Part shown: in pieces, positions 8,496 to 33,283 of the stretch | How positions within the stretch are numbered: position 1 is the first letter of the stretch | Layout: every line of letters begins with the position of its first letter | Assembly: GCA_025359965.1 (NCBI GenBank) | Contig: JANYDC010000027.1 | Coordinates: forward strand, 15 to 64,014 | From: Pedosphaera sp. | GTDB lineage: Bacteria > Verrucomicrobiota > Verrucomicrobiia > Limisphaerales > SXQI01 | DNA length: 64,000 nt | Reading direction: 5' to 3' | Notes under the pieces: model-generated | Told to the model about the DNA's origin: nothing | What the model saw: only the letters and a program-made list of their open reading frames with translations | The model's database searches: none | Program-made: the position numbers and the translations under genes

Positions 8496-8966
8496 TCAGG
8501 TCCTCGCTTCGGCACGTTTTGCATCGAGGAGCGACAACGACTGCTTGTCGCCATTGCCAAGACGCTCCAGCAACTGCTTTAGCTCCGGTCCAATTTTATC
8601 CAACTGTGCTTTATGGGCCGATGATAGATTGTCCAGAATTTGCTCTCCGCGCGTGGTCAGCAGAACATGAACTTGCCGACGGTCATCCGATGATTGTTCG
8701 CGCGTAAGGAGGCTCAGGTCCACCATTCGATCCACCAACTCAACCGTGCTGTTGGGACGAAGCTGCAGCCGTTCCGCCAATTCACCAACTGTAACCGCAT
8801 CGCGTCCGGGAAATCCCTTGATCGCCAGCAGTGCCTGATGTTGTTGAGGCGTCAGCCCAGCCTCCTGCGCGGCATTCTCGCTGAAACGAAGAAACTGTCG
8901 CAAGGCGTAGCGAAAAGCGGCGAGACTCTCGTATTGGGCTTTGGAAAGTTTTTTTTGGGTAACCAT
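8496..8966 (-). CDS. MarR family transcriptional regulator
   Basis: 156 aa. Winged-helix region LTPQQHQALLAIKGFPGRDAVTVGELAERLQLRPNSTVELVDRMVDLSLLTREQSSDDRRQVHVLLTTRGEQI. Confidence 0.85.
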   Translation of the reverse strand: MVTQKKLSKAQYESLAAFRYALRQFLRFSENAAQEAGLTPQQHQALLAIKGFPGRDAVTVGELAERLQLRPNSTVELVDRMVDLSLLTREQSSDDRRQVHVLLTTRGEQILDNLSSAHKAQLDKIGPELKQLLERLGNGDKQSLSLLDAKRAEART

Positions 8967-9179
8967 TCAAATGGAAGACACACTCAACCAGTTTGCAAAC
9001 AGCACTACCGAGTTGACTTGTATCGTTCTACGACATATTGTTCAGCCGTACTTGTGGAAGTCAAGCGTCCAAATCTGCTTCCACTCACTCAATATCGTCA
9101 TTCATGATCTGGAAAATATTCCTGCTAAAATCGTTAATCGCCGCCCTTTCGGGTTGGGCGATTTTGAATTTGCTCTGAT

Positions 9180-9566
9180 ATGAAAAGCTTCGCCTACCTG
9201 CGCGACAGGCTCTTCCTCTTTGGGTGCGCGGTGTATGCCATTAATCGCTGGCTCGTGAAACCGCACTTTTCCGATGGATTTTTTCACTCCTACTTTAACG
9301 ACCTTTGGCTGATCCCCTGCGCATTGCCGATTGTCCTCTGGTTGCATCGCGAACTGGGCTTGCGAATGGACGATGATTTTCCGCGAGTCGCCGAAATAGT
9401 GTCTCATCTTATTTTCTGGTCTGTATTATTCGAGTGGATCGGACCCAAATGGGTTTCACATACCACGTCCGACCCACTCGATGTGCTGGCTTATGGCGCA
9501 GGCGCGATGGCAGCGGGGCTCTGGTGGCGTCGCGAGCAGTGGGCGAACCGGTTTTCCCGACCATGA
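9180..9566 (+). CDS. Small polytopic membrane protein (possibly DUF2809/VanZ-like)
   Basis: 128 aa with 3-4 hydrophobic segments. Divergent from marR. Family assignment from weak motif memory only. Confidence 0.45.
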   Translation: MKSFAYLRDRLFLFGCAVYAINRWLVKPHFSDGFFHSYFNDLWLIPCALPIVLWLHRELGLRMDDDFPRVAEIVSHLIFWSVLFEWIGPKWVSHTTSDPLDVLAYGAGAMAAGLWWRREQWANRFSRP

Positions 9567-10027
9567 GCTTCGACAGACTCGCCCGCCATTATCGATGGAT
9601 GGAGTGGCTTCTGGCCGGTGAAAAACTGCAACGGTGCCGGACAGCGTTCCTGACCGTGATCCCGTCCCCCGGCAACATCCTTCTATTGGGTGAGGGAAAT
9701 GGAAGATTCCTCACAGTGTGCCGCGAACGGTTCCCCAACGCTCAAATCACCTGTGTGGACGCAAGTTCGAGGATGTTAGACCAGGCTCGGAGACGCACGA
9801 AGTTGGCAGGACTAAACCACGATGCAATCACGTTTGCTCATGCTGATATCCTGTCGTGGAAACCTTCAGCGGCGGACTCCTATGATCTGGTCGTCACGAA
9901 TTTTTTTCTCGACTGCTTTCCAGCCAGCCAACTCGAAACAATCATTTCCAAAGTAGGCTGTCTGGCATCGAACAAGGCAAGTTGGCTCGTGGCCGATTTT
10001 CAAGTGGCTTCAAAAGGACCGGAGTGA
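9563..10027 (+). CDS. Class I SAM-dependent methyltransferase
   Basis: LLLGEGNGRFL glycine-rich SAM motif I. Acidic motif II VDAS. ATG overlaps the previous stop. Confidence 0.7.
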   Translation: MSFDRLARHYRWMEWLLAGEKLQRCRTAFLTVIPSPGNILLLGEGNGRFLTVCRERFPNAQITCVDASSRMLDQARRRTKLAGLNHDAITFAHADILSWKPSAADSYDLVVTNFFLDCFPASQLETIISKVGCLASNKASWLVADFQVASKGPE

Positions 10028-10244
10028 GCGCGAAGCAAGGTGATTCTTTGGATGATGTACACGTTTTTCTGTAGAGCAACCCAGCTTCCTGCTCGTCAAC
10101 TGACTCAGCCGGATCAGTTCCTGCAAGCAGCCGGTTTTAACCTGGTCCAAAAAGTTCAGTCTGAGTGGGGATTATTGGGCAGCAATTGGTGGAAGCGGAC
10201 CTACGAGCAAATCCAATCACGTTGACCATTTCCACAGCCTCGAA

Positions 10245-11678
10245 TCAGGTTTTGGATGGAATCCTGACTCTAAAACAGGAGCCGGAACCCAGGGTGCTGG
10301 ATGCCTGAATGGCGCCTCCGTGAGCCTCAACAATTGCCTTGCTTATGGCAAGCCCAAGCCCGGTGCCTCCAGTCGCGCCAGTGCGCGATGCGTCCGCACG
10401 ATAGAAGCGCTCAAAAATACGAGCCAAATCCGCCTCGGCGATTCCCGGGCCGTTATCTGTAACAGTAATGACGGCGAATGACGGCTCAGTGAAAGACGCC
10501 ACGCGGACCTCACCGCCACTTCTATTATGAACAATGGCATTGGTGAGCAGATTGGCCATGACCTGCGCCAAACGGTCAGTATCCGCCATGCACGGAGCAG
10601 CTTTAAGATCAACGATAAGACTCACGCCCCGTTCGTCAGCAAAGGGGCGTATGAGATCAGCTGATTCCCGCGTCAAATCGGCAAGATCGCAAGGCTGCTG
10701 CCTAAAGGACTCCTGGCCCGCATCAAACCGGGCCAACTGCAACAATGATTCAATCAGCCGGCGCATCCGCTGTGCGGCGCGCTGACATGTCTCCGCCGTC
10801 GCCTTGTAATCGGCCGCCGTGCGCTCGCGCGCGAGTGTGGTCTGGGTCTGGGATAAGATCACAGTGACTGGAGTGCGAAGCTCATGAGAGGCATCAGAGG
10901 TGAAGCGGGCCTGCTGGGTAAACGCGGCGTCAAGACGAGCGAACGTGGAATTGAGCACCGCCGCCAACTGTCCAAACTCGCTGTCAGTTTCAGTGGCGCT
11001 GATCCGGTGGGAAAGGTCTCCGCCGGCGATTTTGGCAGCTGCCTCGGTAATTTCATGGATCGGGCGAATTGCGCGCGTGGCAAGCCACCAACCCCCGGCC
11101 AAACCCAGCGTCAAAACCACACCACCAAACAGCAACATCCAGAGCGCAAGCTGGCGCAAACGGCCGATCTCCGGGGCAACTGAACGCCCCACCAGAACAC
11201 ATTCTCCTGGCGGGGTGAACTCATAAAGCTCACGCGAATCGCCCTGCATTCGAAATTGGGATCGGGGCATGCCTCGAAGAAATGGCGGGGGTTGAAACAC
11301 CACTGCAGGCCCATTTTCGGATCGCTTTGACACTACGCCGCCAGGCTCCCAAACGATGAAATAAAACCCATCTTCATTGGCTTCAAAGAGATCGGAAACG
11401 TTTTCCCGGGGCCGCCTGCCTCCAGGCGGAGGAAAACCCCCTTCATCCGGAGGGGGATCCATGCGCAAACCAGGTCGCCCCTCAGGCCTTCCTCCACGAG
11501 GAGGGGGACGAAGCGATTCCGACAGCAGCCTCAAACGATGTTGCAGCCCCTGGTCAACTCGTCTCATTTCATCGCCTTGCTGAAGCCGGTGGGCCGTGAA
11601 GCCAAACCCCGCCAGCACCAGCACCAGAATAAGTCCGTGCCAGATCTGCAACCGCCAACGTATGGAATGAAAGATCAT
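10245..11678 (-). CDS. Sensor histidine kinase (2 TM, periplasmic loop, HAMP, HisKA, HATPase_c)
   Basis: H-box SHELRTPVT, N/G boxes (NLLTNAIVH, TGLGLAI). Periplasmic loop is Pro/Gly/Arg-rich (PPPRGGRPEGRPGLRMDPPPDEGGFPPPGGRRP). Confidence 0.9.
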   Translation of the reverse strand: MIFHSIRWRLQIWHGLILVLVLAGFGFTAHRLQQGDEMRRVDQGLQHRLRLLSESLRPPPRGGRPEGRPGLRMDPPPDEGGFPPPGGRRPRENVSDLFEANEDGFYFIVWEPGGVVSKRSENGPAVVFQPPPFLRGMPRSQFRMQGDSRELYEFTPPGECVLVGRSVAPEIGRLRQLALWMLLFGGVVLTLGLAGGWWLATRAIRPIHEITEAAAKIAGGDLSHRISATETDSEFGQLAAVLNSTFARLDAAFTQQARFTSDASHELRTPVTVILSQTQTTLARERTAADYKATAETCQRAAQRMRRLIESLLQLARFDAGQESFRQQPCDLADLTRESADLIRPFADERGVSLIVDLKAAPCMADTDRLAQVMANLLTNAIVHNRSGGEVRVASFTEPSFAVITVTDNGPGIAEADLARIFERFYRADASRTGATGGTGLGLAISKAIVEAHGGAIQASSTLGSGSCFRVRIPSKT

Positions 11679-11680
11679 GC

Positions 11681-12334
11681 TCAGGTCTCTATGGAATAAC
11701 CGTGGCCGCGCCGGGTGATGATGAATTCATGGCCCAGCTTTTTGCGAATGTTGGAGACGTGAACATCCAACAGATTGGAAAGACTGCTGTCATCCTCATC
11801 AAACAAATGCTCGTAAAGAGCCGTGCGCGTGACCACCTCACCCCGATGCAAGGCCAGAAACGCCACCAACCCATATTCCCGCGCGGTGAGTTCAACTACT
11901 GCGCCTGCACGCGTGACAAGCCGGGCGGCCGTGTCGATGCTGACATCGCCGATATCGAGCGTGTTGCAGGTTTGTCCGGCACTACGGCGAATCAGGGCCC
12001 GCAGACGGGCCAGCAATTCATCGAGATCAAATGGTTTGACGACATAATCATCCGCGCCTGTATCAAGACCGCGCACGCGATCCATGGTCCGATCCCGGGC
12101 CGTCAACATGAGCACGGGCGTCTTCTTTGTTTTGCGCAGCCGGGCGAGAAGTTGCCAGCCGTCTAGTTTGGGAAGCATGACGTCGAGGACAATGGCGTCA
12201 TATTCCCAGCTCTCGGCCTTGTGCAGCCCCTCGTCCCCATCAGCGGCAGTGTCGACCGCGTAGCTCTCCTCGCGCAGGGCCTGTGCCAGGCTGCGGAGCA
12301 AATCGGGTTCATCTTCGACAACCAAAATTCTCAT
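11681..12334 (-). CDS. OmpR/PhoB family response regulator
   Basis: MRILVVEDEPDLL receiver start, D in LDVMLP, winged-helix C-terminus ...RRGHGYSI. Stop abuts the kinase start. Confidence 0.9.
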   Translation of the reverse strand: MRILVVEDEPDLLRSLAQALREESYAVDTAADGDEGLHKAESWEYDAIVLDVMLPKLDGWQLLARLRKTKKTPVLMLTARDRTMDRVRGLDTGADDYVVKPFDLDELLARLRALIRRSAGQTCNTLDIGDVSIDTAARLVTRAGAVVELTAREYGLVAFLALHRGEVVTRTALYEHLFDEDDSSLSNLLDVHVSNIRKKLGHEFIITRRGHGYSIET

Positions 12335-12636
12335 GGCATGTGGATCAGAAGTGTAAGGCAAACGCTGGGGATTGCACCAGAACCGACATCATGATCCAGC
12401 AAACCTTAAGGGAAGATGAAGAGATTATTTGCAGCCCGAGAAAATAATCAAAAACATTTTCGAACCTTCACCTTCCCTTAAGGTGGCCCAGCGTAAGGTG
12501 ACGGCGTGATCGAAATTAAACACATCAGAAAAGACTCTGGAAAAACTTGATCACATTGTTTGCGCCTCAACCGGTTTATTGAATGCATCGTGTCGATGCA
12601 GCGGCAGGCGCAAGGACAACGCAGCAATCAGAACCC

Positions 12637-13179
12637 ATGATGAAAATGAAACTCGTCCTCCTTACACTGGCACTCGGGATTTCCGCGAGCCTTCTCACCG
12701 CCCAAGACGCCCCAGCGCGCCCTGATGGACAACGCCCGCCTCCCCCTCGCGAAGGCGGACCCGGTCGCCAGGACCGTGAACATCGAGGGCCTGGCGGACC
12801 TGAAGAGGATCGTCGCGGCCCGGGTGGCCATGATGGCCCCGGAGGCCCGGAAGGTGATCGCCGAGGACCGCGTCCCCCGATGCCTCTCCTCGTCGCACTG
12901 GACTTGAATCACGACGGAGTCATTGACGCTGAGGAGATCGCCAAAGCCAGCGAGTCCTTGAAGAAATTGGACAAAAACGGCGACGGCAAACTAACCCCGG
13001 ATGAAATACATCCGCCCCGTCCCGGCGGACGAGGAGGACCCGGCGGCCCCGGACCTGATGGTCGCCCTGAAGGTCCTGGTCCACGGCATGACGATCGACC
13101 ACGCCATGAAGGTGGCCCCCGAGGGGACGATGCACCGCGCGGGGAAGGACGCCCACCCCGCCCTGCTCCAGAAAACTAA
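12637..13179 (+). CDS. Secreted EF-hand calcium-binding protein with Pro/Gly/Arg-rich low-complexity flanks
   Basis: MMKMKLVLLTLALGISASLLTAQD signal peptide. Two EF loops DLNHDGVIDAEE and DKNGDGKLTPDE. Flanks are GPGGP/RRGP repeats. Confidence 0.65.
   Translation: MMKMKLVLLTLALGISASLLTAQDAPARPDGQRPPPPREGGPGRQDREHRGPGGPEEDRRGPGGHDGPGGPEGDRRGPRPPMPLLVALDLNHDGVIDAEEIAKASESLKKLDKNGDGKLTPDEIHPPRPGGRGGPGGPGPDGRPEGPGPRHDDRPRHEGGPRGDDAPRGEGRPPRPAPEN
12700..13170 (+). repeat. GC-rich low-complexity coding repeats (ggaccc/ggcggccc/cgaggacc codon runs)
   Basis: Repeated GGPGGP / DRRGPGG / GPRP coding units visible in the DNA. Generates many overlapping shadow ORFs on both strands. Confidence 0.6.
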
Positions 13180-13393
13180 GCATCCCGAGTCGAAAGGCGC
13201 GTCAGCCATGACGCTGCCTTCCGGGAAGCTAATGATGCGCCGAACCACTCGCGCCCACGGGTGGTTTCGGGGCATTTTTGCCCCCCCCGGAGCACGCCAA
13301 ACAAACAGCATTTGGCACCCAGCCTGCTGCAACAATGAGGTTGCCAAAATAGCGAAAAAGCGAAGAATTAAACTGTACCGAGATTGCAAACCA

Positions 13394-16300
13394 ATGATTG
13401 AACGCCTGAATGATCCGCTTCGTCCGAGGGCGGGATGGACTACGACTCCGAACTTACGACTCTGGATGCAGTTGACCTTGTTAGGCGTGCTTTTGCTGGT
13501 TGGGCTTGGAGGAAGTGCTCTTGGACATCCAATCATTTCTGAATTTCTCGCCAGCAATACCCGAGGATTGCTTGATGAAGACCGGCAAACCAGCGATTGG
13601 ATTGAATTGTATAATCCCACCTTCGCATCGATCGACCTAGGCAACTATGCACTGACTGATACCGCCGGCGATTTGCTTAAATGGAAATTCCCATCAACAA
13701 ACCTGGCGTCAGGTCAGTTTATGGTGGTCTTTGCCTCAGGCAAGAACCGCCGGATAACGGGGCAGCCTCTCCATACTAGCTTCAGTTTGGCTGCCACGGG
13801 GGAGTATCTTGCGCTGACCACAATTGACGAAACGACCATCGTTTCTGAGTTTGGGCCGGTTTACCCCGCGCAATCACCGGATATATCCTATGGATGGATT
13901 GGCAGCACCAACGAGCTGGCCACATTTTTTAATCCCCCCACACCTGGCCAACCCAATCCAATGGTCCCCTTTGAGACTGCGGCGAACGTAGGGTTCTCCC
14001 TGCCAAGTGGGGGGTACGCCACCAATACCACAGTGATTCTTTCCAGCTCAGAAACCAATGGGTTCATTCGATTCACGATCAATGGTACAGAACCCAAGGC
14101 CACCTCGCCGGTATATGTCAACCCCTTGCAAATCTTCAAAACCACCGTGGTCAGGGCCCGCGTTTTTGCGCCCGACAAGGCTCCAGGCCCACTCCGCTCG
14201 GAAACCTACCACTTGATTGAACCCGGGCTGGCGTCGTTCTCATCGAACCTGCCCCTGCTCATCCTCAGCACTTTCGGCGCTGGAGTTAGCGAATCAACCA
14301 AAACAATCACATCTTTCACATTGGCCGAACCGCGCAAAGATACGGGTCGAACAACCCTTACAAGCCCGGCAACAGCGGAAGGACGTGGAGTGATCAAAGT
14401 GCGTGGCAGTAGTTCATTGCAGTTCCCAAAACACAGCCTCGCCTTTGAGATTCAGGATGAGTTCGGCGCCGACCGTAAAATGTCACTTCTCGGCCTTCCA
14501 GAGGAATCCGATTGGGTTCTCTATGCTCCTTACACAGAAAAGACCCTCATTCGTGACGTTCTGTCGTACGAGCTTTTCGGAAAGATGGGCCACTACAGTG
14601 TGCGAACCCGTTATGTGGAGGTGTTTCTGGACACGAGCGGGAACAAGGTGGCAACCAGCGATTACGCGGGAGTTTATATTTTGGTCGAGAAGATCAAGCG
14701 AGGCAAGGACCGGGTGGACATCCAACAATTATTACCAAGTCACTCGACGCCACCCGAGGTTACGGGTGGATACATCTTCAAGAAGGACCGATTAGACCCG
14801 GGCGACAGCGGATTTTTCACGCCGCAACAACAACTGGCGTTTGTTGAACCCAAGGAGCAGGAGATCACCAAGCCTCAAAGATCATACCTGAGCCAGTTTT
14901 TTGGCAACTTTGAAACGGCTTTGTATGGCGCCAATTTCGCGAACCCCACCAATGGATGGTTAGCATACATAGACGCCTCGTCGTTCATCGACAACCACTT
15001 GCTCGTGGAGGGCACCAAAAACATCGATGGATACCGACTTAGCTCGTACATGTTTAAGGACCGTGACCAAAAACTGAAAATGGGGCCTGCGTGGGATTTC
15101 AACTTGGTCATGGGAAATGCCAATTACCTCAATGGGTGGTTGACCAATGGCTGGTATTACGACGATGTGGGGGACGCGGAGTACCCATGGTATCGACGGC
15201 TCTTTCAGGATCCCAACTTCAAACAAATGTGGATTGATCGATGGGCGGAGTTGCGGGACGGCCCATGGTCGACCACTTCGCTGCTTCGCTCGGTTGATGA
15301 AAAGGCCGCCTACCTCAACGAGGCTCAAGCCAGAAACTATCGCACCTGGCCCATTCTCGGCACCTACGTCTGGCCCAATTGGTACATCGGAAACACCTAT
15401 GCCGAGGAGGTTGACTGGATGAAACAATGGATTGTGGGGAGAATGGCGTGGATGGACGGACAAAACGCGCGACGACCGAAACTGAGCAGAGCCACTGGTC
15501 CTGTGGCCAGTGGTGATTCCGTGCTGCTCTCCGGACCGAGCACCCCTATTTACTTCACCACCGATGGCTCTGATCCGAGGCTGCCTGGGGGAGCCATATC
15601 GCTGAAAGCAAAGATTTATTCCGTAAAATTGACTATTACAAACAATGTGAGGATCGTGGCGCGGGCCAAAACATTAAGTGGATGGAGCGCGCCCCTCGCT
15701 GCCTCATACATTGTTAATCCGTCCCCCCTGATCATCACTGAGATCATGTATCACCCCGCGGTGGCGGACACCGGTTTCATCGAGCTAATGAACACTGGCA
15801 AGGTCCCTCTGCCGTTGGTGGGTTTCAAAATTTCGGGGGGTATTGATTTTGATTTCAACACCAGCGCGATCACCCAAATCCTTCCTGGCGCACGAGTGGT
15901 CGTTGTGGCGAACCTTGCAGCTTTCAATGGCTTTTATGGCAACACCAACAACGTTGCCGGTGTTTACAAGGGCAGCCTTTCCAATTCAAAAGCCCAACTG
16001 ATCCTAACAGGTCCGATGGGTGAACCAATCCTTGATTTCAGCTATGAAGACAATTGGTGCCCCGCCACCGACGGCAAAGGGTTTTCCCTCGTGATCCGCG
16101 ATGAGCAAGGCGACCCGGCCTTGTGGAATCTAAGTAGGGGATGGCGTGCCAGTGGGCTTCCAAACGGCACGCCAGCGGGCACTGATCCTGGCTCCTCTAT
16201 ACCAGAGATCTGGATTAACGAAATTCTCACTCGCAGTACGCCCCCATTCTCGGACACGATCGAGATCTACAATCCGGGCAACTCCACGGCTGATATCAGC

Positions 16301-17815
16301 AACTGGATTCTCTCCGACGAAACCGCCACCACCAACGGGTACGTTTTTCCAGCAGACAGCAAAATAGCCCCGAATGAGTATCTCATCGTGACTGGTGACC
16401 AACTTTCTTCGACCACTGCGACCCGAACCGGGTTCTCCCTCCGTGCCGCAGGCGAAACCGTCTATCTCTGGTCCGCCGACACCAACCATATTCTCACCGG
16501 TTACGCGAACCGTTTTAACTGCCAGGATGCTTTTGAGAATGTTTCCTTTGGTCGGCAAACCAGGTCAGATGGAAAACTGGAACACCCGCCTCAAAAACGC
16601 CCGACGTTTGGGCGCGAAAACTTCGTTCCAAAAGTGGGACCCCTTGTCATCACCGAAATTTTCGCCTCACCCAACGTCCCGGGTCATTCCTTCATCGAAC
16701 TCAAGAACGTCAGCCTAGTGCCCCTGACTCTTGCTCAACCGGGTGATCCCGCGAAGACATGGGAAATCGCAGGGATAGACTTCCAGTTTCCAACCGCCGC
16801 CTTGATACCAGCGGATGGTTTTGCCCTGATCGTAAAAACCAACCCCGCCGGTTTCAGGACGCGCTTTCAAGTTCCTGCCGAAGTCCCCATCTTCGGCCCG
16901 TTTCTTGGCGAATTGAACGCCTTTGGAGAGGAGCTATCTATCCTCCAGCCTCAAGTCCATACAAACTCTCTGGGCGTCACGCAAATATTGAAACCCAAAT
17001 CGGATGAGGTTGCATTTCTTGACAGCAGCGCATGGCCGGGACTTCTTGCCAATGGCGATGTAAATATTGAAAGAGTGTTTTTGACTGGCTACGGCAAAGA
17101 CCCAGCCAACTGGCGTGAACCACCGGGAGGCATTTCTCCTGGCAGATACAATGTCAATGCCGCCAAACTCCCCCCGGCTCTGGTGATCAATTCACCGAAC
17201 CCAGTTTACGATGGAGTGCGAAGCCTCCTTGCTGGATGGGCCTCGCGCGACACCGCTTTGGACGGTGGACCTGTCACGGTTGAATGGAGCCTGACTTCAG
17301 GTCCGGCACCGCTCGAATTTGAAAGCCGCCAAAGTGAATCGACTGTCGCGCGGTTCCGGATCCCAGGAATCTACGACGTCAGATTCTCCGCCTCAGATGG
17401 CTTCACCAACACATCGATTAGCAAAACCATTTCCGTTCTGCCTAATTCGGAGTACCAGCAATGGGCGACATCCATTTTTAACCCAAGCCAGCTGGCTGAT
17501 CCCGTCATCAGCGGCATGACGGCCGATCCCGATTCCGATGGGGCCACCAACGCCGACGAATGGCTCGCCGGAACCGACCCCCTTGATGGCAAGAATTTCC
17601 TTGGGCTCAATTTAGTCTCCGCCTCAGCTAATGGGATTGCTCTTCAATTCCAGGGTCAAACAGGACTCTGGTATGCGGTGCAAAAGCGCGGATTGGTAAA
17701 AGATTCAGAATGGGAAACACTTGCGACTGTGGCAGGCTCCGCATCCGTACAAATTACGGTTCCCGTTCAAGATGCGAGTAGTTATTTTCGAGTCTCCACA
17801 CTCCCGGCCCAATAG
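13394..17815 (+). CDS. Giant secreted protein: four lamin-tail domains, CotH kinase-like domain, PKD-like domain
   Basis: Lamin-tail motifs ISEFLASN...DWIELYNPT, IITEIMYHP...GFIELMNTG, IWINEILT...DTIEIYNPG, VITEIFASP...SFIELKNVS. CotH-like core LPLLILSTFG...VIKVRGSSSLQFPKHSLAFEI...DWVLYAPYTEKTLIRDVLSYELFGKMG. PKD-like TVEWSLTSGPAPLEF. Signal-like MQLTLLGVLLLVGLGGSALG. Start ambiguous (13208, 13394 or 13466, all in frame). Confidence 0.8.
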   Translation: MIERLNDPLRPRAGWTTTPNLRLWMQLTLLGVLLLVGLGGSALGHPIISEFLASNTRGLLDEDRQTSDWIELYNPTFASIDLGNYALTDTAGDLLKWKFPSTNLASGQFMVVFASGKNRRITGQPLHTSFSLAATGEYLALTTIDETTIVSEFGPVYPAQSPDISYGWIGSTNELATFFNPPTPGQPNPMVPFETAANVGFSLPSGGYATNTTVILSSSETNGFIRFTINGTEPKATSPVYVNPLQIFKTTVVRARVFAPDKAPGPLRSETYHLIEPGLASFSSNLPLLILSTFGAGVSESTKTITSFTLAEPRKDTGRTTLTSPATAEGRGVIKVRGSSSLQFPKHSLAFEIQDEFGADRKMSLLGLPEESDWVLYAPYTEKTLIRDVLSYELFGKMGHYSVRTRYVEVFLDTSGNKVATSDYAGVYILVEKIKRGKDRVDIQQLLPSHSTPPEVTGGYIFKKDRLDPGDSGFFTPQQQLAFVEPKEQEITKPQRSYLSQFFGNFETALYGANFANPTNGWLAYIDASSFIDNHLLVEGTKNIDGYRLSSYMFKDRDQKLKMGPAWDFNLVMGNANYLNGWLTNGWYYDDVGDAEYPWYRRLFQDPNFKQMWIDRWAELRDGPWSTTSLLRSVDEKAAYLNEAQARNYRTWPILGTYVWPNWYIGNTYAEEVDWMKQWIVGRMAWMDGQNARRPKLSRATGPVASGDSVLLSGPSTPIYFTTDGSDPRLPGGAISLKAKIYSVKLTITNNVRIVARAKTLSGWSAPLAASYIVNPSPLIITEIMYHPAVADTGFIELMNTGKVPLPLVGFKISGGIDFDFNTSAITQILPGARVVVVANLAAFNGFYGNTNNVAGVYKGSLSNSKAQLILTGPMGEPILDFSYEDNWCPATDGKGFSLVIRDEQGDPALWNLSRGWRASGLPNGTPAGTDPGSSIPEIWINEILTRSTPPFSDTIEIYNPGNSTADISNWILSDETATTNGYVFPADSKIAPNEYLIVTGDQLSSTTATRTGFSLRAAGETVYLWSADTNHILTGYANRFNCQDAFENVSFGRQTRSDGKLEHPPQKRPTFGRENFVPKVGPLVITEIFASPNVPGHSFIELKNVSLVPLTLAQPGDPAKTWEIAGIDFQFPTAALIPADGFALIVKTNPAGFRTRFQVPAEVPIFGPFLGELNAFGEELSILQPQVHTNSLGVTQILKPKSDEVAFLDSSAWPGLLANGDVNIERVFLTGYGKDPANWREPPGGISPGRYNVNAAKLPPALVINSPNPVYDGVRSLLAGWASRDTALDGGPVTVEWSLTSGPAPLEFESRQSESTVARFRIPGIYDVRFSASDGFTNTSISKTISVLPNSEYQQWATSIFNPSQLADPVISGMTADPDSDGATNADEWLAGTDPLDGKNFLGLNLVSASANGIALQFQGQTGLWYAVQKRGLVKDSEWETLATVAGSASVQITVPVQDASSYFRVSTLPAQ

Positions 17816-18005
17816 CAGCCCCCCCCTGCGAAAGCGTGGCTCCATTGGATAGTGGGTTTAACTTCAATTGCGAAAGTATCCGTTTTGGAGACACTCGTAT
17901 TGGCTCCCACATCACAAATTGTCCTGAAATTAAGTTCTCCTAAGCCACAGTTGCACTCCCGCCCCTGATTGTGGCATACCTAGCCCACATGAGTTCGGAA
18001 ATCGT

Positions 18006-18722
18006 ATGACAGCCATAATTCTTGCCGGCGGCAAAGGCACGCGGTTGAAGCCGTTCACCATGACCATCCCCAAGCCACTACTGCCCCTGGGTGATGTTCC
18101 GGTGTTGGAAATCGTTATAGCACAACTTGCAAAAGCCGGGTTCCAGCGCGTCGTATTGTCCTTGGGACACATGGCCCCGCTCTTCACTGCTTTGCTGGGG
18201 GATGGTTCAAGATGGGGTTTGCGTATAGATACCGTCATTGAGGACCAACCTCTCGGCACCGCTGGATCCCTTCGCCTTGTTCAGGATTTATCGGAGCATT
18301 TTCTGGTGATGAACGGTGACCTTCTCACCACGCTCGATTACCGGGGGCTCATGGAACACCACGTCGCCAAGAAATCCTGGGCCACCATAGCGGTCAACCG
18401 CCGCAAGGTTCATATCGATTACGGCGTCATCGTTTCCGATAAATCGGGCAACCTCAGCAAGTATCGTGAGAAACCCACCATCAAATATGATGTGAGCATG
18501 GGGATATATGTATTTTCAAAAAAAGCCCTTCGATTCATTCCGGCAGAAGGCCGTTTTGATGTGCCCCAACTCATGTTGGGAATCAAAGATGCGGGCAAGC
18601 CTGTGCAGTGCTACAAAACCGAATGTTATTGGCAGGATATTGGGCGTTTTGATGATTACCAAGCCGCAAGCGACGATTTCGTAAAAGATCCCAATCGTTT
18701 CCTGTCCGGAACTCATGCGTAA
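18006..18722 (+). CDS. Sugar-phosphate nucleotidyltransferase
   Basis: MTAIILAGGKGTRLKPFT signature G-x-G-T-R-L of NTP_transferase. Confidence 0.85.
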   Translation: MTAIILAGGKGTRLKPFTMTIPKPLLPLGDVPVLEIVIAQLAKAGFQRVVLSLGHMAPLFTALLGDGSRWGLRIDTVIEDQPLGTAGSLRLVQDLSEHFLVMNGDLLTTLDYRGLMEHHVAKKSWATIAVNRRKVHIDYGVIVSDKSGNLSKYREKPTIKYDVSMGIYVFSKKALRFIPAEGRFDVPQLMLGIKDAGKPVQCYKTECYWQDIGRFDDYQAASDDFVKDPNRFLSGTHA

Positions 18723-19650
18723 AATCCTGATCACAGGTGCATCCGGTTTTCTGGGGCGGCATGTATTGGACCGAATCCGCCTTCGCGAGCGCGCCTCCGT
18801 CATCGGAGTGGGGAGATCCATCCCCAGTTTTGCCTCCGATTTTGACCGGTTTGATACGTTGGATTTCCAGCAGCCTGGCGCGGCTTCAGCCCTGATTGAG
18901 TCCATAAAACCTGATTGGATTTTTCACCTGGCTGGCAGCGTGAAAGGAAGCAATCTCGACCTTTATCAGGGAAATCTGATGACCTCCGTTGATCTCCTCG
19001 ACGCAGCGGAAAGCCATTGTCCAAAAGCAAAAATCCTGCTCACAGGTTCGGCGGCAGAGTATGGATTCTCAGCACTGAATGACGGCGTGCCCATCAGCGA
19101 AGAAACGCCGTGCCATCCCGCGGGTTCTTATGCGACTAGCAAGCACGCCATGACGAGGCATGCACTCGACCTCCATGCTCGTCGCGGCATGCATCTCAAT
19201 ATTGTGCGCCCGTTCAATCTGATTGGCGCTGGCATTCCATCGTCCCTTCTGCTGGGCGCAATTCTGGAGCGCGCCAACAAGGCCATCGCCGAAGGTCTTC
19301 CCGGGATCGTAGTGGGCAATCTCGCGCCGGAGCGTGATTTTCTCTCGGTTACGGACGCTGCAGAGGCTTGCGTTCGCGTGATGGAACGCAATATTGATGG
19401 CGAAATAATCAACTTATGCTCAGGCATACCCACTTCAATCCAATGGATGGTCGAGTCGGCGCTGAAGTGTTTTCCTCGAAACCTTGCTTACGAAGTTGAC
19501 CCGTCTCTTGTCAGGGTCAGTGATCCCAAAAGAGTGGTTGGAAACAATGAAAAGGCACGACGACTGCTCGATTTCCAACCAGAGACTCACCTCAACGATG
19601 CACTTCGGTCTGCGTGCGAGTTCGCACTCGCCAATCAAAGGAAAACTTGA
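18715..19650 (+). CDS. NAD-dependent epimerase/dehydratase family protein
   Basis: MRKILITGASGFLGRHV Rossmann GxxGxxG. YxxxK (YATSK). Overlaps the upstream stop by 8 nt. Confidence 0.85.
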   Translation: MRKILITGASGFLGRHVLDRIRLRERASVIGVGRSIPSFASDFDRFDTLDFQQPGAASALIESIKPDWIFHLAGSVKGSNLDLYQGNLMTSVDLLDAAESHCPKAKILLTGSAAEYGFSALNDGVPISEETPCHPAGSYATSKHAMTRHALDLHARRGMHLNIVRPFNLIGAGIPSSLLLGAILERANKAIAEGLPGIVVGNLAPERDFLSVTDAAEACVRVMERNIDGEIINLCSGIPTSIQWMVESALKCFPRNLAYEVDPSLVRVSDPKRVVGNNEKARRLLDFQPETHLNDALRSACEFALANQRKT

Positions 19651-19664
19651 AAACAGCCATTCTT

Positions 19665-20759
19665 ATGAATCTGGCCAGCCCATGGGCCAGAAAAACCGCC
19701 CTGGCTTTGGCTGACTTAGGGCAGGAAGTGCACGTGATCGATTTTTCCACAGCCCGACAGGGACGTGGAACAATCAAGAAGGAGGACGAGTTTCAAGTTG
19801 AGGCGGTTCAGGCATTTAGGAACAAGATGGCGGGGGTTCACCTGCTCGAAACGCGGTTCTCCTCCAGCCTTCGTTATTTTACTGCGCTTCCAGCATTCAA
19901 AAAAATCCTTGAGAAGGTCCGCCCTGATGTCCTTCTCACATTATATGCTGGAGGTTTTGCCAATCTTGCCTTGTTAAGCGGTTTCAGGCCATACGTCGTC
20001 TACGTGGTAGGCAGTGATGTGTTACTTTCAAAAGGCATTTCGCGTCAGCTAGGCAGCTCGGCCCTGACCCATGCATCACTGGTGTTGGCTAATGGCGGGT
20101 TCCTAGCCCAAAAAACCCGCGAAATGAGTTCGGCGGCCAAAGTGAAATGCCTGCTTCTGGGCGTTGACACCGAAAGCTTTACCCCGCCTGCCCGTCCACC
20201 CGGACCTAAAGTGGTCTTCTTTAACAATCGCGGTTTCTCCCCGATCTACAATAACGAATACATCATCGAGGCACTGTCACTGCTTAAGCCGCCACTGCCC
20301 GAGTTCCACTTCCATTTCGCCTCGCTCGGCCCCGGCTTGGAATCCACCAAACAACTGGCGGCACGAATCCTTTCACCTGCGATGCTTGCGAACATCACTT
20401 TTTGGGGTGGCGTGAATCAGGCTAAGATGTTGGAACTCCTGCGCCAATCACACTATTTTGTGAGCGTAAGTCGATCGGACGGCACTGCCACTTCCCTTCT
20501 GGAAGCCATGTCGTGTGGGCTCTACCCCATACTCTCAGATATCCCCCAGAATCGTGAATGGGTGGATTCCGCCGATAGCAACGGGATACTGGCCCCTCTT
20601 GATCAACCCAAAGACTTCGCGGACGTTCTCACGCATGCTCTATTGCACCCCGAGGAGGCGGCACAAAAGTCTCCCATTAATCGACGCCTAATTCAATCTC
20701 GCGCGGACTCGCACAAATCGATGCAATCGCTGGGAAGCATGCTTTCATCAGCAGTTTAG
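19665..20759 (+). CDS. Glycosyltransferase (GT4-like)
   Basis: C-terminal SDGTATSLLEAMSCGLYPILSDIPQNREWV matches the GT-B E-x7-E region. Confidence 0.7.
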   Translation: MNLASPWARKTALALADLGQEVHVIDFSTARQGRGTIKKEDEFQVEAVQAFRNKMAGVHLLETRFSSSLRYFTALPAFKKILEKVRPDVLLTLYAGGFANLALLSGFRPYVVYVVGSDVLLSKGISRQLGSSALTHASLVLANGGFLAQKTREMSSAAKVKCLLLGVDTESFTPPARPPGPKVVFFNNRGFSPIYNNEYIIEALSLLKPPLPEFHFHFASLGPGLESTKQLAARILSPAMLANITFWGGVNQAKMLELLRQSHYFVSVSRSDGTATSLLEAMSCGLYPILSDIPQNREWVDSADSNGILAPLDQPKDFADVLTHALLHPEEAAQKSPINRRLIQSRADSHKSMQSLGSMLSSAV

Positions 20760-20852
20760 AGAAAGGGGGTTGGGCATTTTCGATCCATTTCAGGTATTTT
20801 GAAAATAATTGAAACCACGCGGCGCATTCAGGTGTCTTAACGATAGCCAAAC

Positions 20853-22178
20853 ATGACCACAGCCAAAAAGAAGAGTCGGGGAAAGTTAATCTGGATCATT
20901 CTCGTCATCCTTGTTGTTGCGGGCGCAGGCACCGCGTATGGCTTGAGGAAGAGGGAAAAGCCCATTACCGTTCAGACCGAAAAAGTGGGCCGACGCAACA
21001 TCACGGAAGTGGTGGTTGCCAATGGAAAAATTCAGCCGGTTCTCCAAGTGACGATTAATCCGGAGGTGAGCGGTGAAATCATCGAACTTCCGGTTAAAGA
21101 GGGCCAGACCGTCAAAAAAGGCGATCTTTTGGTGAAACTCAAACCTGATAACTATCAGGCCAGCCGCAACTCGGCCGATGCCAACTACAAATCGAGTCTG
21201 GCCAACGTGAATCTTGCTCAGGCCAACCTCGACAAAGCTGTGCTTGAATTCAAGCGGTACGAGCGTCTGTACGGCGACAAATTGGTCTCAGATTCGGACT
21301 ATTTGTCAGCCAAAACCAGCTGGGACGTTCAAAAAGCGACCTACGAAACCTCCACACACGGAGCCGCGCAGGCGAAGGCCGCGCTGGCGAAGGCAGAGGA
21401 TGAACTAGCCAAAACCATCATTTACTCGCCGATGGATGGAACCATCACCAAATTGCGGTCTCAAATGGGTGAGCGAGTGGTCGGCACGGCCATGATGGCA
21501 GGCACGGAAGTTATGAATATCGCCAATCTGGAGGTAATCGAAGCTCGTGTGGACATCGGCGAGGTTGATATTCCCCTGATCGCCACCGGTCAAGTGGTAC
21601 GGATCGAGATTGAGGCCTATCGCAACAAAAAATTTGGCGGCATCGTTACCGATATTGCCAACGCTTCCAAAAACAATCCCACCGGTAATTCTGCGGCTGC
21701 AAATAGCACTTCAAGCGGTGGCACTGCTGAGGCGACAAAGTTTGAAGTCCGCATCAGGGTGAAGGATCAGGGGATTTTCCGCCCCGGCATGTCAGTCACG
21801 GCTGAAATCGAGTCCCGCTCCCGCACTAACGTGCTGGCCGTCCCCCTACAAAGCGTCACCACTCGAATGGCCAAAAAGCCGGACGCAGGAAAAATGGATG
21901 AGCAGCCGAAGTCGGATGAAAACAAACCCAAAGCATTTACCAAGGTTGACAATAAACCGGCCGAGGTGGTTTTTAAGATGGACGGTGACAAAGTGAAACT
22001 CACCCCGGTCAAAACAGGCATCAGCGACGATGGTTATGTGGAACTAACCGAGGGTCTGAATGAAGGGGAAGTCATCGTTTCAGGAGGATACAAAGCGGTG
22101 AGTCGAGAGCTGGAGGATGGTAAAGCCGTGAAGATTGAGGCCAAGGAAGACAAAAAGCCTTCAACGCCGGGAACCTGA
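20853..22178 (+). CDS. Efflux adaptor (HlyD/MacA family membrane fusion protein)
   Basis: N-terminal TM, lipoyl/beta-barrel motifs ([23 protein letters not shown]), coiled-coil segment. Confidence 0.85.
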
Positions 22179-22185
22179 GTCCATC

Positions 22186-22893
22186 ATGCCCCTGCTTGAA
22201 CTAAAAAACATTGCCCGCCGCTATGTCATGGGCACCGAAACCATCCATGCCCTGCGGGATGTGTCGCTATGCATCGAGCGCGGCGAATACGTGGCTTTGA
22301 TGGGCCCATCAGGTTCAGGAAAATCCACGATGATGAATCTCCTCGGCTGTCTGGATACCCCCACGGCCGGCGATTTCCTTTTGAACGGCAACCATGTCAG
22401 GGAAATGGATGACAATGAGCTGGCGGAATTGAGAAATCGTGAAATAGGTTTCGTGTTCCAAAGTTTTCATCTTCTTCCGCGTTCTGACGCCCTGCACAAT
22501 GTGGAGCTTCCTCTCATTTATGCGGGTGCCGACTCCACGCAACGGCGTGAGCAGGCCCTCAAGGTTTTGGCCCAGGTCGGACTGGCAGAGCGGGTCCATC
22601 ACAAACCAAACGAAATGTCAGGCGGGCAACGACAAAGGGTCGCCATTGCCCGGGCCCTGGTCAACAATCCCTCCATTCTTCTTGCTGATGAGCCCACCGG
22701 GAATCTTGACTCCCGTACTGGGGAAGAAATCATGGCTCTGTTCGAAGCACTTTGGAAACAGGGTAATACGATTATTCTCGTGACGCATGAGGAGGACGTG
22801 GCCCGCCATGCCAAGCGCATCGTCCGCCTTCGCGATGGACTGGTTGCGAGCGATGAACCCAACCTCAACCCCATCATTCCTGCCCAAGCATGA
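22186..22893 (+). CDS. ABC transporter ATP-binding protein (MacB/LolD-like)
   Basis: Walker [10 protein letters not shown], signature [15 protein letters not shown], Walker [13 protein letters not shown]. Confidence 0.9.
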
Positions 22894-24119
22894 GATTCTG
22901 GCAGGAAATCCGGGAAGGCCTAATCATCTCGTTTGCCTCTATTCGCGCCAATAAACTCCGCAGCGCCCTGACCACGCTTGGCATCATCATCGGCATTGTC
23001 ACCGTAACGCTCGTGGGCACCGCGATCAATGGCTTGAACAATGCCTTTAACAAGAGTATTTCCGCGCTCGGCAGCGACACTTTATATGTGCGCCGGGGAA
23101 GTTGGTTTATCGATTCTGATGCCGAATGGCAAAAAATGAGAAAACGTCCTCCTGTGACGCTGGATCAGGTCGAAAAAGTCAGCCGCCAAATGACGCTGGC
23201 CCGGGCTGTCGCCCCTTTTGCGATCACCCGCCAATCAGTATCCTACAAGAATAAGAACTCCTCCAGCATCGTGGTGATCGGGACCACGGAGGATTTCGTC
23301 AATATCGCCGGGAATAGCGTCGCCTCGGGGCGTTTTTTTACTTCTCTTGAGGCGGCGGGCGGGCGTCCGGTTTGTTCCATCGGCAACGAGGTTGCGACCA
23401 ATTTGTTCAAAGGAGAGGATCCAGTGGGCAAACGAATCCGGGTGGGCAACCAGACACTTGAAATCTTGGGAGTAATGACCAAGCAGGGAAGCTTTCTTGG
23501 CCAGTTCAGTCTGGACAACCAGATCATTATTCCGGTGCGCCAGTACATAAGCATGTTCCGGCGTGAGGAGGATTTTGAAATCCAAATCAGGGCCGTCTCA
23601 ACAGAGCAGGTGGAAGAGGCCAAAGAGGAGCTCCGCGGCATCATGCGACGCATCCGCCACGTTCCTCCTGGAGTTGAGGACAACTTCGCCATCAACCAGC
23701 AGGAGATGTTTATCAAGACTTTCAACCGAGTGGGCGGGACCATCGCCAGCGCAGGGCTTTTCATCACCGGGCTATCCCTGTTTGTCGGGGGCATCGGGAT
23801 CATGAATATCATGTTTGTCTCGGTTGCAGAACGCACCAAGGAAATTGGAATTCGCAAGGCCATTGGGGCGAAAAAGAGGACCATTCTGCTTCAGTTCCTC
23901 GCTGAGGCTGCCGGAATTTGCCTTTTTGGAGGAGTGCTCGGATTGATGATTGCCTTCCCCTTAACGCTTGTGATGAACCAATTCCTGCCTGCCACCATGA
24001 ACCTGACCATTGTGGGAATCGCCCTATTGGTTTCTGCAATAACCGGTGTCGTTTCAGGATTTCTTCCCGCGTGGAGGGCTGCCCGAATGAACCCGGTTGA
24101 TGCCCTTAGGAGCGAATAG
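22890..24119 (+). CDS. ABC transporter permease, FtsX/MacB family
   Basis: N-terminal TM, large periplasmic domain, C-terminal 3 TM with [27 protein letters not shown] motif. Confidence 0.9.
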
Positions 24120-24122
24120 ATC

Positions 24123-31133: not shown

Positions 31134-32915
31134 TCAACTCTTCTTAAGTTTGCCCGATTGCAGCATGGTGGAGAGAAGCGCATCAGCAAGGCCTCCGGTT
31201 CCACTTTGCCCCGTGACGGCGACATCAGGCACGATGCGCACGTTCTTGTCTCCGACAATCTGCATCAATTGCATAATAGTGTAGCTTTCGGAGCCAAGGG
31301 ACTCCACACCCGCACGATAGGCTTCGGCCTTGGCGTTGCCGGTGGCTCGGATGGCCTCAGCCTCGCCATGGGCGCGCAGGCGGATTGATTCCGCTTCGCC
31401 ATCCGCTTTTTTGACCGCAGCCCGAGCGTGCAGTTCGGCAATGCTCACCCCCTGCTCCGCTCCCACCACTTGTTGCTGGATGTCGGCGAGCGAGGTCTGG
31501 CGGACCAATTGTTGGCGTTGAATCTGGGCCGCTTCCTGCACCTCGAAAGTCTTGCGTTGCTCCTCGGCAATCTTTCGATCCGTCTGCGTGAGCATGAGTT
31601 CCTGTGGCGGAGTGATGTCGCCTATGAGGGTGTCGATGGCCTGAACATCGTAGGCTCCAAGAGCGGTACGGATATGGCGAGCCGCCTCACTCTGCCGCTG
31701 ACTGCGCGCGCTCAAGAAATCCAGCACTGAGAAATCCTGGGCTGAATTGCGGAAGTAATTTCCTACGATTGGCTGAAGCACGTGATCCACCATGTTCTGC
31801 ATGGAACCCACCCGCGAGATGACCTTAGGGGCGTCAAGCGCGCCGACGTGAATGATTTGGGCCACATCCAGATTGAATCCAAAGCCGTCCTTGGACCGCA
31901 CTGTGATGCTGGAAAGTTTGGCATCAAAATGATGGGCTTCAGTGCGGTTCGCCCAGTTGAGAACAATGTTGGTGGTGGGCACCAACTCGATTTTCATAAC
32001 GCGGGGATTAATCGGGTGCTTGCCGGGATACAATGGAGTCACCCACACTCCCTTGTGCCCGGCCGCGACCAGATCACCATGCTTGAAGTCCGCGCCGCTG
32101 ACGTCGATGTGGGCACGACCCACAAAGGAAATCACCACGCCCACGTAACCAATGGGAATCTCCAGCATGTGGACCTGCTCCACGTTGACAAACCACGGGT
32201 TCAGATTCCAGGAACCACTCAGCATGGGCTGCTCCTGCAAACCGCGATGGCCGCCATTATCGAGGAATGCCTGAGGATTCTGGAAGTTATCATGGGCTGG
32301 CACATTGGGTCCGGCGATTTCGCCTTCGGAGATGGGCTGTCCATCCAGCGTTGTTACCACTCCCACCATGTCGGGTGAAACATGATAAACACGCAAATAT
32401 TCTGAGTTCATTCCCAGCTCACCCGCATTGTAAGAGGTGATGATCTGGAACAACTCCGTGTTGATGCGGTAGGTGCCGGCGGTGATAATGGCTAGTTGAC
32501 GGCCACGCTCGCCGCCGCCTGTCAGGAAGCGGCGCGCATCCTGAAAGTGATCGCAATCCACAGCCCGGGCCAGGATTCGCCCTGGAGGAATGGGAGAGCC
32601 GTCAGCCGCCATGACCAGAGCGATCTCGCCCTGACAAACGCGGACGACTGGAACTTTATCCACGCGGTACTGCCATTTCCATAACCCGAAATGAAGCCCG
32701 GGAGGCAGTGTGTCGGCCTGGATGCCTGATTCATTGGCCAAGGCAATCAATCGGCCCGGTTCCAGTGAACGCGAACCGAATTTTTTAATGACAATCCCCA
32801 CCTCCTGTTCCCGTATGTAAACCGCCCCGAGCCAAAAGGCCCAGAGGATGAACAAAACAATGCCCATCGTCCAAATCATCCAAGGATGAATGAGCCCAAG
32901 AATTCCCGTTGTCAT
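31134..32915 (-). CDS. Flotillin-like SPFH/band-7 protein (YqiK/FloT-like)
   Basis: N-terminal hairpin membrane anchor MIWTMGIVLFILWAFWLGAVYI, SPFH domain, long EA-rich coiled coil AEEQRKTFEVQEAAQIQRQQL...AKAEAYRAG. Confidence 0.85.
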   Translation of the reverse strand: MTTGILGLIHPWMIWTMGIVLFILWAFWLGAVYIREQEVGIVIKKFGSRSLEPGRLIALANESGIQADTLPPGLHFGLWKWQYRVDKVPVVRVCQGEIALVMAADGSPIPPGRILARAVDCDHFQDARRFLTGGGERGRQLAIITAGTYRINTELFQIITSYNAGELGMNSEYLRVYHVSPDMVGVVTTLDGQPISEGEIAGPNVPAHDNFQNPQAFLDNGGHRGLQEQPMLSGSWNLNPWFVNVEQVHMLEIPIGYVGVVISFVGRAHIDVSGADFKHGDLVAAGHKGVWVTPLYPGKHPINPRVMKIELVPTTNIVLNWANRTEAHHFDAKLSSITVRSKDGFGFNLDVAQIIHVGALDAPKVISRVGSMQNMVDHVLQPIVGNYFRNSAQDFSVLDFLSARSQRQSEAARHIRTALGAYDVQAIDTLIGDITPPQELMLTQTDRKIAEEQRKTFEVQEAAQIQRQQLVRQTSLADIQQQVVGAEQGVSIAELHARAAVKKADGEAESIRLRAHGEAEAIRATGNAKAEAYRAGVESLGSESYTIMQLMQIVGDKNVRIVPDVAVTGQSGTGGLADALLSTMLQSGKLKKS

Positions 32916-33283
32916 ATACACTATCTCCGAAGTCGGTCCATGCGGGCGCGTCAGAGCGCGACCGCACAGGCCAGGTTTGAACTTGGGGAGACCGCGAGAA
33001 CCCACCACAAGATGGGGCCGGAGGATCGCCCTTCCAGTTGCCGACGAGGTTAGCTGACGGGCTGAGTCCTAGAAGTGACCCGGAACCATGTTGCCATGAT
33101 TCCCACGCCCCATCCCCGCGTCGTCCGGCGAATGCCGAAAAACCCGGGGAACTTGGTTCCCCCGTGTGTCAGCCCAGGAAGGGGCCGCCACTTAGGCTGC
33201 TGAGCAAGCAATACCACCTCCCCTCAGAATGTCAAAAGCAATTGGATTTCTGCAATTCGCAAATTTACCCAGCGATATTGGGC

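Follow-up and report, generated by a model that had tools for sequence, protein, structure and literature searches.

A predicted secreted CotH-domain protein with four lamin-tail domains in Pedosphaera sp.: domain architecture, translation start and gene neighbourhood

We analysed a stretch of 64,000 nucleotides from Pedosphaera sp. (contig JANYDC010000027.1 of assembly GCA_025359965.1; the whole 64-kb stretch is called the window here). On its plus strand lies an open reading frame (ORF) of 1604 codons (13001..17815), confirmed in the window as a real frame, which encodes a large protein built around a CotH atypical-kinase domain and several lamin-tail domains (LTDs). The gene of an EF-hand protein lies upstream on the same strand, and genes for an OmpR-type response regulator and a HAMP histidine kinase run divergently from it on the minus strand. 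Residues are numbered throughout from the Met at 13394, and the features of the region are collected in Table 1.

Domain architecture and catalytic residues

The initial annotation described a secreted protein with four LTDs, a CotH kinase-like domain and a PKD-like module, and this architecture is borne out by the Pfam domain map, blastp comparisons, homologues and the predicted fold. LTD1, LTD2 and LTD3 score above the PF00932 cutoff of 34.3 bits and LTD4 scores below it. By blastp, LTD4 and LTD2 are homologues (34% identity over about 100 aa, E 5e-9), as are LTD1 and LTD3 (E 7e-10); the count of four is therefore correct, and judged by these alignments the domains fall into two subtypes. 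The PKD-like region stays below the PF00801 cutoff of 23.5 bits in the window protein, and five of eight aligned homologues match K319L-like_PKD (PF22352, best E 4e-10). This assignment is further supported by an AlphaFold2 (AF2) model of residues 1255-1473, with a mean predicted local distance difference test score (pLDDT) of 84, in which the first beta-sandwich superposes on PKD domains (AAVR, KIAA1837). Its template-modelling (TM) scores are 0.76 for AAVR 6ihb_R, at a root-mean-square deviation of 2.4 Å, and 0.60 for 2yrl. Two kinds of module had been overlooked, namely a pair of CHB_HEX_C_1/Fn3_assoc beta-sandwiches that flank the CotH domain and a conserved module at the extreme C-terminus. 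Pfam reports no dockerin domain in the protein, and in blastp the remainder of the window yields no paralogue of its CotH or LTD domains.

Although the whole protein has no phmmer match in the PDB (and none to 5jd9), a profile of 14 CotH domains (alignment A1) searched against the PDB recovers the B. cereus CotH structure 5jd9 with an E value of 0.005, with KNIDGYRL and WDFNL aligned with QNFDGF and WDYD. D545 and D568 are thereby placed on the two Asp residues of 5jd9 (Table 1), with the 23-residue spacing seen in 5jd9 and in B. subtilis D228/D251. The identities of the essential Asp residues are taken from the B. subtilis enzyme, in which D228Q and D251A each abolish catalysis (PMC7821199). 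Both residues, together with K346, E432, D465 and R557, are conserved in 100% of 119 homologues that are only 38-70% identical within the CotH domain. Indeed, against the nearest orthologues no part of the protein is better conserved than this domain (70% identity vs 49% overall). For an AF2 model of residues 281-700 (pLDDT 80.6, predicted TM score 0.81), Foldseek returns strong PDB matches to 5jda and 5jd9 alone (E 6e-12, probability 1.00, TM 0.60/0.69), the runners-up being HipT kinases with E > 0.02. For the ATP-binding Lys and the ion pair of the N-lobe, short of which the HMMER alignment to 5jd9 stops, K346 and E352/E432 are invariant candidates. The initial annotation had left the active site to be checked against Bacillus CotH; both Asp residues are present, aligned and invariant, and based on conservation and the predicted fold the domain looks catalytically competent.

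These similarities do not make the protein a spore-coat CotH. Bacillus subtilis and B. cereus CotH (5JD9, 5JDA), a spore-coat Ser/Thr kinase, shares with it the PF08757 domain, the fold, both essential Asp residues and their spacing, but only ~12% identity in the structural alignment to the window domain. Bacillus CotH is a single-domain protein of ~360 aa that resides in the mother-cell cytoplasm and acts on the Bacillus spore-coat proteins CotB and CotG, whereas the window protein has a signal peptide and about ten extra modules. It is thus not a CotH of the Bacillus type in the strict sense (cytoplasmic, single-domain, from a sporulating host, with CotG and CotB as partners), because of its signal peptide, its multidomain build of 1,450 aa, homologues from metagenome-assembled genomes (MAGs) of Verrucomicrobia and Planctomycetes, and the missing phmmer match. 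To our knowledge, no spores are known from this Verrucomicrobia-type lineage.

Secreted or surface-exposed CotH proteins also occur outside sporulation. The CotH invasins of Mucorales (CotH2/3/7), which are described as binding the host receptor GRP78, likewise expose a CotH-family domain at the surface but are eukaryotic and of another architecture. In C. thermocellum, Cthe_0239 (LTD-LTD-Fn3-CotH) is a component of the cellulosome (PMC6083626), and the role of cellulosomal CotH proteins such as CseP (Cthe_0044) is reported as 'not clear yet', a structural role having been proposed (PMC12484212). These proteins resemble the window protein as secreted combinations of CotH, LTD and Fn3-type modules of equally obscure function, but they are parts of a Gram-positive cellulosome, whereas the window protein has the order LTD-CotH-LTD3, another C-terminal module and no dockerin.

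Such cases frame the main rival on function, in which the CotH domain binds rather than catalyses and the protein serves as an adhesin or a structural component of the surface, in the manner of the Mucorales invasins and CseP. An extracytoplasmic location with scarce ATP and the many Ig-like modules would fit this explanation, as would the structural role proposed for the cellulosomal proteins. Yet both catalytic Asp residues and the accompanying charged set stay invariant across homologues as divergent as those aligned here, which is the pattern of an enzyme, and we regard a purely binding role as unlikely.

The C-terminal module consists of a helical linker, a TSP3-like Ca2+ site (from residue 1377) and a terminal beta-sandwich. 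The putative Ca2+ ligands are D1378, D1380, D1382, N1386 and E1389, and the pattern D-x-D-x-D...N..E is invariant in the alignment of homologues (A2), where the module takes the form of a helix, a DxDxDG..N..E site and a beta-sandwich ending in YYRV-P. Of 95 homologues with the module, 93 carry it no more than 12 aa from the C-terminus, whatever their middle domains. This terminal placement and the invariant site suggest Ca2+-dependent anchoring or sorting as its role. No Pfam model covers the terminal beta-sandwich in the Pfam scan, and NCBIfam yields a single sub-threshold match (Amuc_1099), on the TSP3-like motif. A profile search with the module returns 49,642 representative proteins at E<=1e-3, mainly through its TSP3-like half, a count that is dominated by proteins with many TSP3-like repeats and is not a measure of the full module. 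Full-length matches are also seen C-terminally in other proteins, whose lengths run from 286 to >6,000 aa.

Table 1. Features of the EF-hand/CotH region (window coordinates; residue numbers as in the text)
Feature	Position	Residues	Strand	Evidence or remark
EF-hand gene, separate from the CotH unit; secreted Ca2+-binding protein with Gly/Pro/Arg-rich tail	12637..13179		+	Pfam
3' hairpin of the EF-hand transcript (conserved), within the 'extended' CotH frame	13179..13230		+	fold; kept in L088-L090
GC-rich terminator-like hairpin running into a T5 run (13275-13279)	13234..13279		+	fold -29.1 kcal/mol, z -2.9
Sigma-70-like promoter candidate, TTGCCA-16-AAGAAT	13341..13368		+	26 nt upstream of ATG 13394
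Optional Arg-rich n-region of the signal peptide	13394..13465		+	present only if the start is 13394
Signal-peptide hydrophobic core and cleavage site, MQLTLLGVLLLVGLGGSALG then HP	13466..13525	25-44	+	from translation
Lamin-tail domain 1 (ISEFLASN...WIELYNPT)	13529..13888	60-143 (Pfam match)	+	PF00932 47.9 bits
CHB_HEX_C_1 / Fn3_assoc beta-sandwich 1	14003..14209	204-272	+	PF13290 53.6 bits, PF13287 41 bits
CotH atypical-kinase domain	14393..15454	334-687	+	PF08757 176.9 bits, cutoff 23.8, model 1-322/322
Putative catalytic Asp (NIDG)	15026-15028	D545	+	on D224 of the 5jd9 chain
Putative metal-binding Asp (WDFN)	15095-15097	D568	+	on D247 of the 5jd9 chain
CHB_HEX_C_1 / Fn3_assoc beta-sandwich 2	15494..15673	701-760	+	PF13290 24.6 bits, PF13287 23.6 bits
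Lamin-tail domain 2	15725..16042	778-883	+	PF00932 36.6 bits
Lamin-tail domain 3	16193..16489	934-1032	+	PF00932 55.8 bits
Lamin-tail domain 4, divergent	16637..17143	1082-1150 (Pfam match)	+	PF00932 16.3 bits; blastp to LTD2
PKD / K319L-like Ig domain, divergent	17177..17440	1288-1348 (Pfam match)	+	PF00801 18-20 bits, sub-threshold
Extreme C-terminal module, ends YFRV then stop	17441..17815	1350-1473	+	TSP3_bac 16.3 bits (sub-threshold), alignment, model

Reading frame and translation start

The EF-hand ORF (12583..13179, 198 codons) and the CotH-frame ORF overlap by 179 nt, out of frame (418 mod 3 = 1). The EF-hand product (P0274, NCBI-derived) has 180 aa, matches EF-hand_5 with 38.9 bits in two stretches and EF-hand_1 with 30.8 bits, and is 71% identical to its orthologue P0280. 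The initial annotation had pointed to the CotH frame running back into this gene, 393 nt upstream of the start it found most plausible. The open frame exists, but composition suffices to explain it and it carries no biological meaning.

With codon log-odds trained on the long genes of the window, the CotH frame scores +0.25 to +0.28 from 13466 onward and -0.05 between 13181 and 13393; the value of -0.11 for 13394-13465 covers 24 codons and is uninformative. The stretch 13001-13179 looks 'coding' in the CotH frame (log-odds +0.57, G+C at third codon positions (GC3) 0.95), because position 3 of the CotH frame is codon position 1 of the EF-hand gene, whose G/C signal is thus read in a shifted frame. 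Across the EF-hand tail the CotH frame can hardly meet a stop, since this requires a T at EF-hand codon position 2, and this Gly/Pro/Arg/Asp/Glu-rich tail has T at that position in just one of 60 codons. For the remaining 71 intergenic codons, 7% of shuffles are equally free of stops (p about 0.07). The upstream extension is, on these codon and composition statistics, non-coding, a by-product of the composition of the EF-hand gene continued by 71 codons that are open by chance.

RNA folding and synteny locate the end of the EF-hand unit within the same interval. The region 13175-13325 folds with -64.8 kcal/mol (z -4.57), and none of 200 shuffles is as stable. The hairpin at 13179-13230 shows one compensatory change, U-A in the window and C-G in L088, one of the loci (L088-L090) that carry the EF-hand orthologue P0280. 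It is followed by a GC-rich, terminator-like hairpin at 13234-13276 (Table 1). Both were found by folding; the consensus terminator scan gives no plus-strand terminator between the EF-hand and CotH genes. In a DNA alignment with these loci (A4), similarity extends ~100 nt past the EF-hand stop, the first hairpin included, and is lost after ~13276. A synteny breakpoint (about 13277-13283) therefore lies inside the 'extended' CotH frame, and as judged from this alignment the EF-hand unit takes in everything up to about 13283. Past the CotH stop, folding of 17810-17960 gives nothing out of the ordinary (z -0.5).

Homologues that begin with an LTD provide a further guide to the start. Their leader ahead of the [ILV]3-[ST]-E-[FI] motif is mostly 13-42 aa long, with a mode of 23-27 aa, whereas the window protein would have a leader of 22 aa from 13466, 46 from 13394, 108 from 13208, 134 from 13130 and 177 from 13001. 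Because five lines agree, namely homologue leaders, codon statistics, tail composition, the 3' hairpins and the synteny breakpoint, the start as read from sequence is 13394 or 13466, and 13001, 13130 and 13208 are excluded. Two of the three starts that had originally been left open (13208, 13394 and 13466) therefore remain, and 13208 drops out, because it falls within conserved sequence at the 3' end of the EF-hand gene.

Public gene calls disagree with this placement and with one another. P0001 has 1561 aa (start 13130) and P0121 has 1604 aa (start 13001), and the annotation that carries P0121 (locus L087) shortens the EF-hand gene to 60 aa. A genuine long form of this kind, with an N-terminus overlapping the EF-hand gene, is favoured by these automatic calls and by the 'coding' score of 13001-13179. 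That score is, however, the shifted EF-hand signal described above, and no such extension occurs in any LTD-first homologue inspected. The long form would also bury the signal peptide at least 150 residues inside the protein, and its extra region would contain the conserved hairpins and the synteny breakpoint. We therefore consider it highly improbable.

Between the two remaining ATGs, read in the sequence, the one at 13394 gives 1473 aa and the one at 13466 gives 1449 aa. The former adds an Arg-rich n-region, and K/R residues are present in the n-regions of homologues; the latter gives a leader of modal length. Both starts lead to the same mature protein after cleavage between ALG and HP. By the initial annotation, a start at 13466 served by an independent promoter would speak against its view of the gene, and this is partly borne out. 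The start is indeed downstream and a promoter-like site is present at 13341-13368, but 13394 is also possible and such sites occur in the region at chance frequency.

Gene neighbourhood

The genes upstream of the CotH gene form a unit that is conserved without it. In L088-L090 the EF-hand orthologue P0280 belongs to a block of MarR, a small ORF, a methyltransferase, the histidine kinase (-), the response regulator (-) and the EF-hand gene (+), with protein identities to the window of 93.5% for the response regulator, 77% for MarR, 72% for the histidine kinase, 66% for the methyltransferase and 66% for the EF-hand protein. There, LexA and a Y-family polymerase (IMS) follow the EF-hand gene in place of CotH, and neither has a match in the 64-kb window. 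The corresponding block of the window (8500-13280) has the same order and strands, is thus kept in a related genome, and could be a Ca2+-related two-component module of its own.

The CotH gene, for its part, has no constant company. Its orthologues in five loci (the nearest at 49% identity, L001 and L086, and further L082, L083 and L085) all have different and unrelated neighbours. None of 81 related loci contains a match to the EF-hand protein, and the histidine kinase or response regulator is matched in one or two of them. As 56 of 86 related loci match through LTD modules alone and have no CotH domain, neighbourhood statistics were limited to the 28 true CotH loci, where BLAST clustering of 195 neighbour ORFs finds no family in more than four loci.

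These observations bear on the proposal of the initial annotation that the CotH gene shares a regulon with the adjoining two-component system and EF-hand gene. Such a regulon or operon (for example a Ca2+-responsive surface module, with the overlap of frames as coupling) would suit the adjacency of the CotH and EF-hand genes on one strand, the divergent orientation of the EF-hand and regulator genes, and the Ca2+-binding motifs of two proteins that are both secreted. A distant CotH locus (L022) also has a histidine kinase and a response regulator upstream. The proposal nevertheless fails the comparison of neighbourhoods, as the block is kept without CotH in the closest relative found, the neighbours of CotH vary, a terminator-like structure and the synteny breakpoint separate the two genes, and the CotH start is preceded by a promoter-like site. 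The overlap itself has non-coding statistics and a compositional explanation. A shared regulon is therefore improbable. The patterns of synteny and folding indicate instead that the CotH gene is most likely transcribed alone, and most likely not functionally tied to the divergent two-component/EF-hand block, a separately conserved unit.

Downstream, a same-strand run (18006-27647, +) comprises NTP_transferase, NAD-epimerase, GT4, HlyD-like, ABC ATPase and FtsX/MacB permease genes and then a 756-aa ORF; the HlyD-like, ABC ATPase and FtsX/MacB names are those of the annotation in L087, which is the same locus. A MacB/ABC/OEP set is also found upstream of the orthologue P0016 in L083.

The sugar genes of this run raise the question of whether the protein is a CotH kinase directed at a glycan or exopolysaccharide and linked to sugar-nucleotide and glycosyltransferase functions. 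The NTP_transferase, epimerase and GT4 genes share the strand of the CotH gene and begin 190 nt beyond it, the kinase domain lies between CHB_HEX_C_1 modules, and one orthologue at 49% identity lies 2-5 kb from Wza/Wzz-type export genes. In Streptococcus intermedius, deletion of SIR_1594, a secreted CotH+FN3 protein of the pel cluster, lowers Pel levels and aggregation (PMC12345266), and in Zetaproteobacteria the stalk-formation (sfz) genes have an associated CotH-domain protein, Sfz6. SIR_1594 resembles the window protein as a secreted non-spore CotH protein with Ig-like modules beside polysaccharide genes, but it has no LTDs and belongs to a defined exopolysaccharide operon, whereas the sugar genes of the window are merely adjacent and their adjacency is not conserved. 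Indeed, tblastn of the other loci finds neither the NTP-transferase nor the GT4 gene, and the epimerase only once, in a locus without a CotH domain (L044). Polysaccharide genes are present in just two of six contexts inspected, and the known CotH substrates are proteins (PMC7821199). A glycan-directed role is thus conceivable for this protein but doubtful.

Two further features of the window lie apart from these genes. At 33024-33208 (-), a c-di-AMP riboswitch (RF00379) scores 42.4 bits, above the gathering score of 38; it lies directly upstream of a 624-aa ORF (31134..33008, -). ARAGORN reports a 99-nt 'tRNA-Ile(tat)' at 11165-11263 (-), which falls inside the histidine-kinase ORF and is probably a false positive.

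Proposed function and the wider family

Taken together, the architecture, the catalytic residues, the start region and the neighbourhood make it likely that the gene encodes a Sec-exported LTD-CotH-LTD enzyme of the envelope or extracellular space, which forms its own transcription unit and starts at 13394 or 13466. Sec export and cleavage of the signal peptide would leave a mature protein of ~1,430 residues. The CotH-type (Fam20C-like) domain would then act as a phosphotransferase, with a nucleotide as donor and a protein or polymer outside the cytoplasm as acceptor. The four LTDs, the two CHB_HEX_C/Fn3_assoc domains and the PKD-like sandwich may serve as spacers or as ligand- or surface-binding modules, and the C-terminal Ca2+-site-plus-sandwich module may anchor or sort the protein.

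The bacterial LTD is described as having a role that 'has not yet been elucidated', with envelope targeting or help with the substrate as suggestions (PMC6085458). Shewanella ExeM offers a parallel in that an N-terminal LTD directly follows the signal peptide of a secreted enzyme, but exoenzymes of this type combine a nuclease catalytic domain with a single LTD, whereas the window protein combines a kinase domain with four.

Several points weigh against the reading of the gene as a separately transcribed extracytoplasmic kinase. ATP is scarce outside the cytoplasm, which puts the phosphate donor in question, and the literature searched contains no kinase assay for any member of the Planctomycetes-Verrucomicrobia-Chlamydiae (PVC) group. 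The candidate nucleotide-binding Lys, K346, is proposed from invariance alone rather than from alignment to a solved structure. Read-through from the EF-hand gene, or control of CotH by the response regulator, may also operate, as both are compatible with the sequence, and the regulator genes upstream of CotH in L022 point the same way. Finally, the terminator-like hairpin has just three unpaired U after its extended stem and is not listed by the consensus scan, and the promoter candidate, given the chance number of such sites, is weak evidence.

The protein is one ordinary representative of a very large family of Verrucomicrobia-type surface proteins, secreted and built around an intact CotH domain. 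A search with the full-length query recovers more than 3,000 proteins among 8,000 candidates scored, nearly all of which share the Pfam set CotH, LTD, Fn3_assoc and CHB_HEX_C_1, often with Ig or PKD added. Named homologues are 'CotH kinase family protein' or 'lamin tail domain-containing protein' entries from Verrucomicrobia and Planctomycetes MAGs, and those of the EF-hand protein are mostly from Verrucomicrobia. The PVC origin proposed from the letters alone is accordingly plausible. The same annotation had called such proteins functionally uncharacterised in PVC bacteria, and this agrees with the literature searched, in which we found no functional study of LTD-CotH proteins from the group.

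Related loci also give a view of the diversity around this architecture. L083 encodes a second LTD-CotH-LTD protein (18279-20050 and beyond), with 3437 aa and He_PIG, Big_9 and RibLong repeats, 6 kb from the orthologue P0016; several large CotH-LTD paralogues can therefore occur in one genome. Giant secreted proteins rich in LTDs occur widely, in Planctomycetota, Verrucomicrobiota and other groups (L010-L081).

For annotation, the locus offers a lesson in that two public calls over-extend the CotH start and one of them cuts the true EF-hand gene short. Over-extended starts are generated here by a Gly/Pro/Arg-rich upstream gene, and similar artefacts are to be suspected elsewhere. The gene alone is one more copy of an architecture that public pipelines already label. 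It is the family that would be of interest if studied, with thousands of secreted proteins whose kinase active site has stayed intact although they reside where ATP is low. We tentatively raise the possibility, doubtful as it may be, that PVC LTD-CotH-LTD proteins are true extracytoplasmic kinases of envelope or matrix polymers (glycans or Ser/Thr-rich proteins), and that their C-terminal module is an undescribed anchoring or sorting signal common to many giant secreted proteins.

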